IMG/VR virus record: IMGVR_UViG_3300042870_001240
Source of the DNA: a virus
Taxonomy: Duplodnaviria; Caudoviricetes
Strand: one strand, 5' to 3'
Length of the DNA: 64,000 bases
In this document: positions 56,361-63,019 of the stretch, one piece after another
Position numbering within the stretch: the first letter of the stretch is position 1
Layout: each line of letters opens with the position of its first letter
Notes under the pieces: generated by a model
What the model saw: only the letters and a program-made list of their open reading frames with translations
The model's database searches: none
What the model was told of the DNA's origin: nothing
Translations under genes and position numbers: made by a program

Positions 56361-57082
56361 GGTAACATGGAATAATAATCATTTTCAAATTGAGGGACTA
56401 ATAATACTTTACCTGAAGATTTTATACCCAATCTGTCGGCCCATTCATACAATTCTTTATTTGGTCTATCACCCATTCCAGATATATGATAAGTTGACAT
56501 CCCCCATCTATAAATCATGGTAGGTTTTCTATTGGCGTCAAATATCTTTGCGTTATTCTTGAAGGTTATGTCAAAGTCTTCACCCCAACTTTTATCAGGG
56601 AATGTGATTCTATTTAAATATGATTTGGTATACACATTACCATTATTAACCATCCCACTAATTTTAACATACTTATTATTTTCAAAGTAATAGTGGTTAT
56701 TACTACGATATATTTCATAACCAGGTCGAGATTTAATATCGTCCTCTGTTAATTTTAATGCGTTTGGAGCCAATAAGTCATCATCGTCTAATCTATAAAT
56801 GTAATCAAAATTACACTGACTAAATCCCCATCTTAACTTTTCAGAGATTGATGAGAACCTTTCAGAACAATTATAAATTTTAATTTGTGGGTGGTTAAAT
56901 ACATATTCGACATCAGGATAGTCATTAATAATTACCATTTCGGATGTCGGGTTGTTTTGTAATAAAAAAGACTGTATTGATTCCTCCAATAGAGGTTGTC
57001 TCTGATAGGTGAGAGTTAGTACTGAAATCATAAGGAAAAGATAAATTATTGATGAGTTATGTAAACCATGATTACAAATCAA
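56357..57082 (-). CDS. GT2-family glycosyltransferase (start probably MISVLT)
   Basis: ISVLTLTY, IIND, RLDDDD, GEDFD; stop codon lies inside the IS right end. Confidence 0.85.
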   Translation of the reverse strand: MICNHGLHNSSIIYLFLMISVLTLTYQRQPLLEESIQSFLLQNNPTSEMVIINDYPDVEYVFNHPQIKIYNCSERFSSISEKLRWGFSQCNFDYIYRLDDDDLLAPNALKLTEDDIKSRPGYEIYRSNNHYYFENNKYVKISGMVNNGNVYTKSYLNRITFPDKSWGEDFDITFKNNAKIFDANRKPTMIYRWGMSTYHISGMGDRPNKELYEWADRLGIKSSGKVLLVPQFENDYYSMLP

Positions 57083-57401
57083 TAATTACTAATTGTTTAA
57101 ACTGAAAATCCCATTTAGAACCATATTCTTCAACCTCAAGACCAAACATTGAATCAACATTTCTTCTAATTGGTTTTGATATTTCCTTTAATTGATGGGT
57201 TTTATATAACCCCACCGAATTGTTCAATACAATATTAATAATCGTACGACTAATCGTCCTATCATCATCATTGTCAAAATCCCCTGACGCCAAAAAAACC
57301 TTTGTTTCGGTAAAGTAAACTTTCTCCACCTCAGGATAGTTCTTGAGTATATAGGACTCTATAGTTTCGGTTAATTTATTTTCTGTTATTATATATTTCA
57401 T
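57072..57401 (-). CDS. Small protein with MKYIITE N-terminal motif
   Basis: MKYIITENKL. Confidence 0.75.
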   Translation of the reverse strand: MKYIITENKLTETIESYILKNYPEVEKVYFTETKVFLASGDFDNDDDRTISRTIINIVLNNSVGLYKTHQLKEISKPIRRNVDSMFGLEVEEYGSKWDFQFKQLVIIDL

Positions 57402-57413
57402 TTCTTTTTTAAA

Positions 57414-57752
57414 TTATAGGTCTGTTAAAACCCAAGTTCTTTTACCATATACATTAACCCTAGGTGTTAGGTCGTTTAAATTATAGGTCTCTCCCAACCA
57501 TTGTTTTATAATATCCTCTATTTGTTTAGATTCCAACCCAAAAATGGATTTTAAAAACGACCAAATTTCATCGTTATTTATATAAACATCCCTATTTTTA
57601 TCATCATGATAATAGTAAAATAATATTAGTTTATTTTCATTAATATAAAATGTTTTACCATTTCTAACTATTGGTTTTAAATCACCAAACTTATCGTTAA
57701 ACCATTTCATGATTATCTGATTTATTCTATTTTCTGTTATTATATATTTCAT
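57414..57752 (-). CDS. Small protein with MKYIITE N-terminal motif
   Basis: MKYIITENRI. Confidence 0.75.
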   Translation of the reverse strand: MKYIITENRINQIIMKWFNDKFGDLKPIVRNGKTFYINENKLILFYYYHDDKNRDVYINNDEIWSFLKSIFGLESKQIEDIIKQWLGETYNLNDLTPRVNVYGKRTWVLTDL

Positions 57753-57774
57753 TTCTTTAAATTAGTCAAAAATA

Positions 57775-58401
57775 TTAAGGATAGACTTTTAAGGCAAAAT
57801 CATACCCAAACCCTAAAAGTGTTTTTAGTTCGTATAGTCGTTTAATAACTTTATCTTTATAAGACGGTTCATCCTCACTATACCACCATTTACGTATATC
57901 TTTGTTTGAGAATAAGTCTTCGACATTAATATATACTTCAGCACCATTTTTGGTCATCGGTTCTATATACTTAATTTTTAATCCAGGATAAATGTCAGAA
58001 AAATCGTAAAATGGTTCACCTGTTAATTTATTAGTTTTATTTAATACCTTGGCAAATAATTTAAAATCATCGGTTAAATTTTTTTTATATACGTTAATAG
58101 GTTCGATAGTTTCAGATATTTCTTGTCCACCACACCTTTCTTCCCAATAACCTGTTATGTGATGAAACAAACCATTAAATAAAAATTCGGCAATTTCAGG
58201 ATAAGGTAAATCTTTTAAATCATAACATTCTTGATAATAATAATATAGTTCATCTGAAACACCCTCAAGGAAATGATTAGAGTTCTCGTAATCACAGGGA
58301 TACATACTTTCCATAAGATTGTCGACCACATGTTCAATAGCATCAGAACGTCTCCTTACGGACAATGAATGATATTGTGATTCTGTAATAAAGTATTTCA
58401 T
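57775..58401 (-). CDS. Protein with MKYFITE N-terminal motif (start ATG 58401)
   Basis: MKYFITESQY. Confidence 0.75.
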   Translation of the reverse strand: MKYFITESQYHSLSVRRRSDAIEHVVDNLMESMYPCDYENSNHFLEGVSDELYYYYQECYDLKDLPYPEIAEFLFNGLFHHITGYWEERCGGQEISETIEPINVYKKNLTDDFKLFAKVLNKTNKLTGEPFYDFSDIYPGLKIKYIEPMTKNGAEVYINVEDLFSNKDIRKWWYSEDEPSYKDKVIKRLYELKTLLGFGYDFALKVYP

Positions 58402-58402
58402 A

Positions 58403-61336: not shown

Positions 61337-61382
61337 ATTTTATTTTTAATTATAAATATACTCAATTAAATAAAAAATCACA

Positions 61383-61700
61383 TTATCTAATAATGTTGTT
61401 AATGAATAGTTTTACGTTAGGTACCCATTCTGAAACCCTATATTGAATCTCGGCTCTAATATTATCAAAATCTTCTCGTCCTGTGTTAGTATAAATGTCA
61501 ATATAAACAACAATCCCAACATGAGGAACAACTCTATCAATAACAATTTTATCTATGGAATCAACTTCATCCAACTCATCCATTTCACCTAATCCCCATT
61601 CTTGAGATTCCTCACGTATATTATCCAATTCGGAGTCAATCACATTTTGAATATGAGCCTGTAATTTATCAATTTGATTTTCCGTAATTATTATTTTCAT
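61383..61700 (-). CDS. Small protein with MKIIITE N-terminal motif
   Basis: MKIIITENQI. Confidence 0.75.
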   Translation of the reverse strand: MKIIITENQIDKLQAHIQNVIDSELDNIREESQEWGLGEMDELDEVDSIDKIVIDRVVPHVGIVVYIDIYTNTGREDFDNIRAEIQYRVSEWVPNVKLFINNIIR

Positions 61701-62281
61701 TTTTTGTAATGAGTCATGGTTGGTTTATTACCTGTTCCTACTTTTGGGTCTTTCTTTTCCGCCCTTCTTTTTTGTTGAGTCATCGCTTTTTTCTCATCCT
61801 TGTCATATGATGAAGCAACCTTTGGTGTTTCAGATGAAACCTTTTTTGATGGACGACATTTTGGATACGCTTTACCGTCAGCATCTTTTCTTCCACAAGG
61901 TGGATGTTTACCATCGACTTTTTTACTTACATCAACCCATTTTTCTTTAAACCATCGTTTTAAATCCTCATTAAATGATTCTTTTTTTGGTTCAATCCCT
62001 TTTTTTTTCATATTAATAGCAATCGCCGCTTGTTGCGCAGGACTTGATGCCTCGTTTCTTTCTTCTGATTCATTGGTCGGTTTCTTTTTCCAACGACCTC
62101 CTTTAGATTTATATCTTTTAGCCGCAGCACCATTACAATAAGCGCTTGGACAAACTTTATATCTTGACCTTGCCCAAGCCAAACATTGTGACCAAAGTTT
62201 TGGGTTGGTTGGTTTATTTTCACCTTCGATTAGGAGTCCTTCCAATAATTTATATTGTTCTTCGGTAATTAAAATTTTCAT
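61697..62281 (-). CDS. Basic modular protein with MKILITE motif and xNE junctions
   Basis: MKILITEEQY; modules KPTNPKLW...KGGRW, ASSPAQQAAIAI and DLKRWFKEKWVD...PCGR...YPKCRP. Confidence 0.75.
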   Translation of the reverse strand: MKILITEEQYKLLEGLLIEGENKPTNPKLWSQCLAWARSRYKVCPSAYCNGAAAKRYKSKGGRWKKKPTNESEERNEASSPAQQAAIAINMKKKGIEPKKESFNEDLKRWFKEKWVDVSKKVDGKHPPCGRKDADGKAYPKCRPSKKVSSETPKVASSYDKDEKKAMTQQKRRAEKKDPKVGTGNKPTMTHYKK

Positions 62282-62282
62282 A

Positions 62283-62675
62283 TTAGTCGTTTTCTTTTGT
62301 TACTGTTTTTATAGGTGTCTTCACAGGATAAGTATTATTGAACCATTCTTTTAATAGAGGTTCAAAAAGGTCACCAAACAATGATTTAATGGTCATAAAT
62401 CTACCTGACCCCATGTATTCGGTATATCTTAAAATAGGTAACTCAAGACCGTGTCCCCAATCACCTCTTTCATACTGAACTTGGAATATCCAATCATCAT
62501 TCTCCCAATCCATTTCTAAATCTTCATAATAGTTATCGACATTCGCATCAACATATCTATGTTTTTCAGAATCATAATAGTCATAACTCTTTTCGGCACT
62601 ATCCAATTTAGAATAGTCTTCCATTATAGATTTGAAGGAATTGAATAATTGTTTTTTTGTTAATTTATATTCCAT
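62283..62675 (-). CDS. Small protein with variant motif MEYKLTKKQL
   Basis: ORF within the motif array. Confidence 0.7.
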   Translation of the reverse strand: MEYKLTKKQLFNSFKSIMEDYSKLDSAEKSYDYYDSEKHRYVDANVDNYYEDLEMDWENDDWIFQVQYERGDWGHGLELPILRYTEYMGSGRFMTIKSLFGDLFEPLLKEWFNNTYPVKTPIKTVTKEND

Positions 62676-62680
62676 ATTTC

Positions 62681-63019
62681 TTAAAGGTTACTGTCATTAT
62701 CGTCACATCCTGAGTCATTGTCCATAATTACAACCAAAGGTTCAATAGGAAAAAAACTATCAATTAATTTTTCAATTTTATCCTTTATCCCGTTTTTTCC
62801 ATCAACAGAATAACCATTATACGAGATTAAAACATAATGAGAGACATAATGAGATTGTTCGTTATCTGGTGAGGGTATGACAAGAATATCACAAATTTTA
62901 TCACCATAGTGGTCTATAATAAGTTTCTCAACCATTGGGCAATATTTGTCAGAAACAACATTTCCCTTTGGGAACTTTGTCGCTTCTAATAATTGAGATT
63001 TAGTTACAATATATTTCAT
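62681..63019 (-). CDS. Small protein with variant motif MKYIVTKSQL
   Basis: ORF within the motif array. Confidence 0.7.
   Translation of the reverse strand: MKYIVTKSQLLEATKFPKGNVVSDKYCPMVEKLIIDHYGDKICDILVIPSPDNEQSHYVSHYVLISYNGYSVDGKNGIKDKIEKLIDSFFPIEPLVVIMDNDSGCDDNDSNL

Follow-up and report, generated by a model that had tools for sequence, protein, structure and literature searches.

This report concerns a set of genes that begin with nearly the same short peptide in a stretch of viral DNA from IMG/VR (record IMGVR_UViG_3300042870_001240; Caudoviricetes). The window, by which we mean the whole 64-kb stretch that was analysed, has a GC content of about 31%, and the genes in question form an array between positions 57072 and 63019. 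On the minus strand the array holds 14 open reading frames (ORFs), 13 of which are complete while one, from 63016, runs off the end of the window. Seven of the array genes begin with M-(K/N)-(Y/I)-(I/L/F)-I-(T/K)-E-(N/S/D/E)-(K/R/Q) and two more with variants that lack the Glu, which bears out the initial annotation of this DNA, where an array of shared M-K-x-hydrophobic-(I/L)-T-E starts had been reported for this region. Three classes of such N-terminal tags are distinguished here, namely, class A, MK(Y/I)(I/L)ITE(S/N)(Q/K), which often extends to about residue 15; class B, MKKVVRLTE.DLTRIIKRVI.E; and class C, MNL.E.I.RI.., which was seen only in related contigs. In the array, class A tags stand on 57072-57401 (MKYIITENK; 109 aa), 57414-57752 (MKYIITENR; 112 aa; C-terminus WLGETYNLNDLTP), 57775-58401 (MKYFITESQ; 208 aa), 58403-58996 (MKYLITEDQ; 197 aa), 59370-59675 (MNYIITENR; 101 aa), 61383-61700 (MKIIITENQ; 105 aa, with an acidic body), and 61697-62281 (MKILITEEQ, MKILITEEQYKLLE; 194 aa), and a class A variant, MKILIKESQ, begins 59021-59368 (115 aa). 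The two tags without Glu are degenerate, MEYKLTKKQ in 62283-62675 (130 aa) and MKYIVTKSQ (MKYIVTKSQLLE) in 62681-63019 (112 aa), the latter with Glu7 replaced by Lys and with LLE at residues 10-12. There is no class A tag on 60278-61336 (352 aa). The array also contains an untagged ORF of 47 aa at 60052-60195, which has a lipoprotein-like start, MKKFILLTLISFILVSC, the sole such start there.

Tags are also found elsewhere in the window. Class B begins two genes on the minus strand, 50531-51106 (MTKIIRLTETDLANIVKRVIREQ; 191 aa) and 55602-56045 (MKKVVRLTENDLTRIIKRVIEEQ; 147 aa), with the consensus M(T/K)K(I/V)(I/V)RLTE.DL..I(V/I)KRVI.EQ, and the gene at 31623 has a looser relative of this tag. 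Variants of class A begin 35744-36781 on the minus strand (MKIIVNESQYTKLINE16; 345 aa), the orthologue of which in the complete relative G001 starts MKVLLSEEQLKTLIKE16, and 27638-28270 on the plus strand (MSVTILITEEQ, MSVTILITEEQKRKLLSE, offset by two residues; 210 aa). The listed start of 44671-44979, MSMGRLIITEQ, is a real variant as well. All six sites had been assigned to a single pattern; 27638, 35744, and 44973 hold as variants of it, while 50531 and 55602 make up the second class and 31623 is only related to that class. Four other starts that had been counted as related, at 20287, 22031, 38005, and 52258, are weak and were not counted as tags: an [IL]xE near the N-terminus is common, being present within the first 12 residues of 14 of the 71 genes that lack the late-promoter-like box described below. 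A crude window gene set of 18,849 residues contains the motif [YI][ILFV]I[TK]E 11 times; it lies at residue 3 in eight of these cases and at residue 5 in one, and the recurrence of the tag in the window is not due to chance. Among 27 strict examples taken from the window and its relatives, Thr6 is encoded by all four of its codons (ACA, ACT, ACC, and ACG), Ile by ATA, ATT, and ATC, and Ser8 by TCN and AGT, with Glu7 constant, and silent differences separate the two window genes of class B. Since the tag codons vary synonymously, selection acts on the peptide and not on the DNA, and a purely DNA-level repeat is ruled out. A signal peptide was likewise ruled out as the identity of the tag because there is no hydrophobic core.

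The tag is portable, as the initial annotation had proposed: many families of bodies carry it, homologous bodies have exchanged it for another tag, and it is not part of the predicted fold. When IMG/VR was scanned for DNA that encodes exactly MKYIITE, at least 180 sites on at least 118 stretches were obtained, and 92% of these sites, among the matches listed, are at the first in-frame ATG. At least 135 distinct proteins carry this heptapeptide (median length, 115 aa), and they fall into at least 46 body clusters. On 45 cluster representatives other than that of the largest cluster, class A continues as (S/T/N)8-Q9-(L/Y)10-(K/N)11-x-(L/I)13-x-(E/K)15 and then falls to background (among the matches listed). 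A second [IL]xE in class A peaks at residue 15 and ends at residues 12-20 in 20 of 46 representatives, compared to a background of 12% for stretches of equal length further inside these proteins (p = 1e-7). For class B, the N-terminal 40 residues of 55602-56045 were used as the query, and the 39 proteins obtained belong to 17 unrelated body clusters. Over the 17 cluster representatives, positions 1-20 are identical in 13-17, E22 is present in all 17, and Q23 in 10, and from position 24 no residue is above 5 of 17, so that the conservation ends at I20-x-E22. A swap of tags is seen where a G001 protein of class A and a contig L001 protein of class C, MNLQEDIHRIQ.., have bodies that are 33% identical. 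In two metagenomic members of the small protein family described below, P0040 and P0119, IITES or VITDS follows immediately after a class C tag, MNLQEDIYRIQGVMG, the two being stacked; thus the 'ITE' element can be internal, behind another tag.

In an AlphaFold2 (AF2) model of the 57414-57752 protein, residues 1-6 are coil with a low predicted local distance difference test score (pLDDT), and the first helix begins at E7. The tag is missing or replaced by another prefix in 64 of the best 150 family representatives, and three IMG/VR contigs have orthologues that begin with MI(E/K)NKL.., a stop codon lying five codons ahead of this start. The coil in the model and these leaderless orthologues rule out that the tag is an integral beta-strand of the fold. 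Judged from the model, the tag is dispensable for the predicted fold and outside it.

The bodies behind the tags had been described as unrelated, and this is true for only part of the array. BLAST joins 57414, 59370, 58403, and 57072 (59370 matches 57414 with an E-value of 2e-9), and a tag-free profile, which converged on 34 members in a small data set, takes in 57072, 57414, the N-terminal domain of 58403, and 59370 as one family of about 100 aa. The 57414 protein is a core member of it, that of 58403 has a C-terminal extension behind the family domain, and that of 57072 is a weak member (profile E-value of 1e-11 in the first search and 3e-7 after iteration). On the other hand, the family domain of about 90 residues, taken without the tag, had no profile match in 57775, 59021, 61383, 61697, 62283, or 62681, and for the bodies of 57775, 59021, 61383, 61697, 62681, and 35744, to which the earlier description does apply, no relationship to the family was detected. 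The 57775 body also has no detected relative in the window. The family is of a small alpha/beta type with the C-terminal motif W(L/F)xE(T/K)(Y/F). A profile built from the untrimmed alignment A2 and run against 1.84 billion representative proteins reached 1,290 clusters at E ≤ 1e-3. There is no Pfam entry for the family, a Foldseek search with its AF2 model (pLDDT, 79.8) against the PDB had no match below an E-value of 0.07, and the same model found in BFVD only uncharacterised paralogues from one uncultured phage. When the array proteins were searched against Pfam and PHROGs, the only matches were DUF5872 and phrog_23735, both on 61697-62281. This DUF5872 body has homologues in cyanophages, pelagiphages, and G001, in which the similarity begins after residue ~17 and the N-termini are different and lack the tag. 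Since no more than 7 of the 70 proteins with a tag or tag-like start had a Pfam match, calling the tagged proteins an arsenal of effectors is conjecture. Proteins with a DHH domain that start MKK(I/L)L(S/N)ES matched a loose form of the pattern and were set aside as probably not true carriers of the tag.

The 3' ends of the family genes have a feature of their own. These genes end in W-LEETYNLKGLTP, and in relatives this 36-nt segment is repeated in frame with a period of 66 nt, made up of the repeat and an unrelated spacer of 30 nt. Four copies of the repeat are present in L004:6763-7248, an IMG/VR contig, where the geometry resembles that of clustered regularly interspaced short palindromic repeats (CRISPR) within a coding region. 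In the window, 57408-57499 at the 3' end of 57414-57752 holds an eroded second copy, a two-copy relic of this in-frame 66-nt repeat. In another contig, L008:338-2113 codes for a fusion of 590 aa whose N-terminal part resembles window gene 2163-3566 and whose C-terminus is the small-family domain after an internal KKVITESKI; its 3' end has two LEETLNLEGYTP repeats.

The promoter region of many of these genes has the box (A)TATTTAT (ATATTTAT). It is within 60 nt of the ATG in 29 of 96 window genes, mostly 11-29 nt before the ATG, and about 28% of all genes have it. In the array it precedes 58403-58996 (box at 59001-59007 on the minus strand, 11 nt upstream of the ATG), 59370-59675 (box at 59681-59687), and 60278-61336 (box at 61352-61358), and the tagged genes behind these boxes are packed head to tail; the box at 59001-59007 probably heads the run from 58996 to 56357, in which 58403-58996 is the first gene. 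The box is also found ahead of 27638, 31623, 35744, 50531, and 55602. In G004, a near-identical contig, and in G001, it precedes the putative scaffold gene, the terminase gene, the portal operon, the protease operon, and large structural genes, and because it precedes head and structural genes we read it as a late promoter. The late timing of the tagged genes is inferred from this promoter motif only. A different, host-type box, TAnnTTTG, ends 5 nt before the ATG of eight window genes, including those for RNA ligase and an M20 peptidase; examples of this Bacteroidota-type box are upstream of 1326-2153, 9345-10376, 10420-11070, 12625-13032, 30880-31299, 33140-33637, and 54312-54659. With the box at exactly this distance from the ATG, the early mRNAs would have almost no leader, in contrast to the 11-29 nt of ATATTTAT. 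None of the eight genes with the host-type box in the window, and none of the 11 in G001, has a tag. The initial annotation had stated that tagged genes or their operon leaders carry TATTTAT rather than the host promoter, and the absence of tags from host-box genes agrees with this; the TATTTAT box, however, is not specific to tagged genes because it precedes 29 window genes. A scan for sigma-70 promoters did no better than on shuffled sequences.

The window has been found in at least 23 lake-water sequencing runs. With its ClpB-like gene as the query, relatives were obtained as 80 IMG/VR loci, and three of the relatives are 100% complete, with genomes of 318-322 kb; G001 is the one that was fetched in full. 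Another of these loci, G004, is a 22.6-kb IMG/VR contig that overlaps window positions 1-7108 with 96-98% identity and extends 16 kb further upstream. It has genes for the large terminase, the portal, an antisense bS21, a Peptidase_S77 protease, and a very acidic protein of 482 aa in the position of gp22, and because of this gene content we place the phage among the bS21-encoding freshwater Bacteroidota phages, which have been described as a group (PMC9723584); going by that study, the host probably belongs to the Flavobacteriia, Cytophagia, or Saprospiria. The initial annotation had left the prohead protease to be identified, and a gp21-family enzyme is now found both in this near-identical strain and in the relatives. 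The G004 protease gene is 14 kb upstream of the window and thus outside it. Its product, of 240 aa, matches PF03420 with 79.7 bits (cutoff, 27) and the structure of T4 gp21, 5JBL, with an E-value of 3e-14; LNHP and SRGVGS align to the T4 motifs, and the catalytic His and Ser motifs are kept. A gp21-family protease is present in five of five related records, including all three complete relatives. The acidic protein is read as the putative scaffold from its composition and gene order, without a family match. G001 has the same head module together with a gp23-type capsid protein (E-value of 5e-26 to T4 gp23), and the gene order, that is, portal, small core proteins, protease, scaffold position, and capsid protein, matches T4 genes 20-67-68-21-22-23. 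The first 60 residues of the G001 capsid protein contain five [IL]xE, versus three in the other 560, and it is in this region that T4 gp23 is cut.

The cut motif connects the tags with this protease family. In T4 a capsid-targeting sequence (CTS) of about 10 aa is sufficient to bring GFP into the core. T4 gp21 removes short N-terminal peptides from the internal proteins (IPs) and from Alt, and the first 65 residues from gp23 (PMC9958956). Read from AF158101, the T4 sequences concerned are MELITE6 in Alt, ..STITE19 in IPI, ..FLTE65 in gp23, and MKTYQEFIAE10 in IPII and IPIII, while gp24 begins MAKINELLRE and gp21 itself MNEPQLLIE. The tags described here end at (I/L)-x-E as well, class A with I5-T6-E7 and class B with I20-x-E22, and the tripeptides ITE and LTE are the same as in T4. 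In the window proteins, [ILV]xEQ was observed 23 times, against 9.3 ± 2.7 in shuffles, and 14 of these are within the first 60 residues. The 60278-61336 protein has three xVNE-Q junctions (PLVNEQ, and then KSVNEQ twice) between acidic and repeat modules; it looks like a polyprotein and, because of these junctions, is a possible substrate for cleavage at several sites by the protease. Its gene contains a 239-nt tandem duplication (60277-60515 and 60595-60833, 87% identity). The predicted complex between the gp21-type protease and the 57414-57752 protein had a score of 0.00, which speaks neither for nor against binding.

We propose that the tags are propeptides like the CTS of T4, which would target cargo to the prohead and then be cut off, and we put the probability of this reading at roughly 0.55. 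Tagged genes would be transcribed late from the ATATTTAT promoter that they have in common with the head genes; the short amphipathic tag would bring its protein into the scaffolding core while the prohead assembles; the gp21-family prohead protease would cut the tag off at its (I/L)-x-E site or sites; and the mature body would be kept in the capsid and would leave with the DNA at infection. The specificity of the protease, as well as targeting, cleavage, packaging, and injection, is inferred. More tentatively, we suggest that huge T4-like phages of freshwater Bacteroidota may have a combinatorial system of address tags, in which at least three interchangeable tags that end in a cut site of the head protease would load dozens of rapidly exchanged small proteins (more than 60 body families across the lineage) that would be delivered with the DNA.

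Several points weigh against this proposal. Compared by eye, the tags have no sequence homology to the T4 CTS (MKTYQEFIAE) beyond M-K and (I/L)-x-E, and the P1/P3 specificity of this protease is assumed from homology. In class A, Gln9 and the hydrophobic residues 10, 13, and 14 are conserved past Glu7, and a cut at Glu7 alone does not explain this. The largest cluster of MKYIITE proteins is the family of about 100 aa, with 67 of the 135 proteins among the matches listed, and because about half of class A is thus one paralogous family, part of the recurrence of the tag is due to common descent. The late box is common, and gene by gene it is only weakly associated with the tag (Fisher test, p = 0.17 for the window and p = 0.03 for G001). 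Among the tagged bodies there are enzymes, such as Pterin_4a, with no obvious role in a capsid. Finally, the number of tagged genes per genome, about 25 in G001, is far above the handful known in T4.

The conservation past Glu7 (Gln9 in 37 of 45 and Leu/Ile13 in 34 of 45, among the matches listed) would be expected if the tags were permanent N-terminal docking helices that are not cut and that bind a common partner other than the capsid, for example, the phage's own Hsp70 and ClpB-like chaperones, a host target, or a shared regulator. The tags do run into an amphipathic helix, with the AF2 helix starting at E7 and a helical pattern over about 22 residues in class B, and both an Hsp70 and a ClpB-like AAA+ protein are encoded in the window. 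Yet docking leaves unexplained that every tag class has an (I/L)-x-E end where the conservation stops and that these ends match the ITE/LTE cut sites of T4; we consider it rather unlikely. The near-identity of the class B tag over 17 bodies, the tandem arrays of tagged genes in variable regions, and the tag swaps between homologous bodies could instead mean that the shared 5' gene ends and the late promoter are mainly recombination cassettes that shuffle variable genes, with the peptide as a by-product. For T4-like phages, such modular shuffling has been described for conserved cassettes with a promoter and a stem-loop, the PeSLs (PMC2839356, PMC4122927). That the peptide is only a by-product of such cassettes is quite improbable, given that it is kept while its codons vary synonymously (the four Thr codons, Ser8 as TCN and AGT, and the silent sites of class B) and that nearly all of the exact matches listed begin at the first in-frame ATG. 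The spread of the tag may be due to recombination, which does not account for its maintenance.

The size of the small family, which supplies four array genes as well as the largest MKYIITE cluster, also invites the explanation that the tag has no function and reflects common descent together with codon-level optimisation of an A/U-rich start in a host that does not use Shine-Dalgarno sequences. ATA is used at Ile4 and Ile5 in 12-15 of the 27 strict examples, compared to 24% in the genome overall, and a bS21 gene is present in the lineage; a preference of bS21 for phage late mRNAs has been proposed (PMC9723584). Against this, the exact heptapeptide is on at least 45 further body clusters without detectable relation, there are family members without it, Thr6-Glu7 and Gln9 are fixed through synonymous change, and classes B and C differ from class A in sequence and have the same (I/L)-x-E layout. 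We regard this explanation as very unlikely. Each of these rivals covers part of the data, and none of them explains why three unrelated tags all end at (I/L)-x-E or why the conservation stops there.

The closest known system is that of the T-even phages, in which diverse bodies of internal proteins stand behind a conserved CTS (PMC3012670). As in T4 (IPI, IPII, and IPIII, cut by gp21), a short N-terminal peptide that ends in (I/L)-x-E (FIAE10 and ITE19 in T4) is found on otherwise unrelated small proteins, the bodies are hypervariable and mostly without homologues, and the head genes of this lineage follow the T4 order and code for a gp21-family protease, an acidic protein where gp22 would be, and a gp23-type capsid protein. 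The differences are that there are at least three interchangeable tag classes here and one in T4, dozens of body families across the lineage and three proteins in T4, that the host belongs to the Bacteroidota, and that about half of class A is a single expanded family. The ADP-ribosyltransferase Alt of T4, an enzyme carried in the head, starts MELITE with the same I-T-E tripeptide as class A and loses a small N-terminal peptide to gp21 (PMC9958956). Alt is, however, a single protein of 682 aa and is not reported to share the CTS of the internal proteins. The giant phages related to phiKZ have a diverged protease with another cleavage motif and long propeptides, and we know of no short shared tag that has been described in them. 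In these phages, for example, in Salmonella phage SPN3US with its protease gp245, tens of proteins are packed with the DNA and many of them are trimmed by the prohead protease (PMC5694885, PMC7411985, PMC10052503). The PeSLs of T4-type phages (PMC2839356, PMC4122927) resemble the tags in that variable genes of hyperplastic regions have a short conserved element at the 5' end; they differ in being non-coding DNA of early genes, whereas here a translated peptide is kept through synonymous change behind a late-type promoter. No relevant report was found for the tag strings among 8.4 million papers. The principle is known from the CTS of T-even phages; the new elements are its scale, the existence of several tag classes that can replace one another, and its occurrence in this host group and this lineage.

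The window has, besides the two chaperone genes, genes for adenylosuccinate synthetase, a GMP-reductase-like enzyme, thymidylate synthase, RNA ligase, glycosyltransferases, and a PAS/GAF histidine kinase, together with many ORFans. The kinase gene, 39549-41480 (GAF-PAS; 643 aa), is back to back with 41545-42363, which starts MTKLGSKGDVVKQIQQKLG, and a separate ATATTTAT box is ahead of each; a sensor kinase behind a late phage promoter is unusual. Inside gene 4121-4801, positions 4227-4786 hold an endonuclease-like gene with the NUMOD3 motif that is not in the 96-98% identical contig G004, as would be expected of a mobile homing-endonuclease gene that is polymorphic for presence between strains. 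The INPHARED phage collection contained nothing that matched the array in DNA or protein, an exact 36-mer of the window had no occurrence in IMG/VR, and the first gene of the window had no identical protein on record. Metatranscriptome contigs from four datasets cover scattered parts of the region 50-64 kb, including parts of the array, with 90-99% identity, as contigs from which strand, timing, starts, and levels are unreadable and in which DNA carry-over is possible.

If the proposal that the tags are capsid-targeting propeptides is true, abundant lake phages would inject dozens of uncharacterised proteins at the first moment of infection, which is the stage of anti-defence and host takeover, and their injected proteome would be far larger than that of any T4-type phage studied. 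The tag would then be a simple sequence rule by which such proteins can be found in metagenomes, and natural tags that are short and swappable could serve for packaging and delivering foreign proteins. The CTS principle of T4 would be widened from three coliphage proteins to a modular, expandable system in distant T4-like phages.

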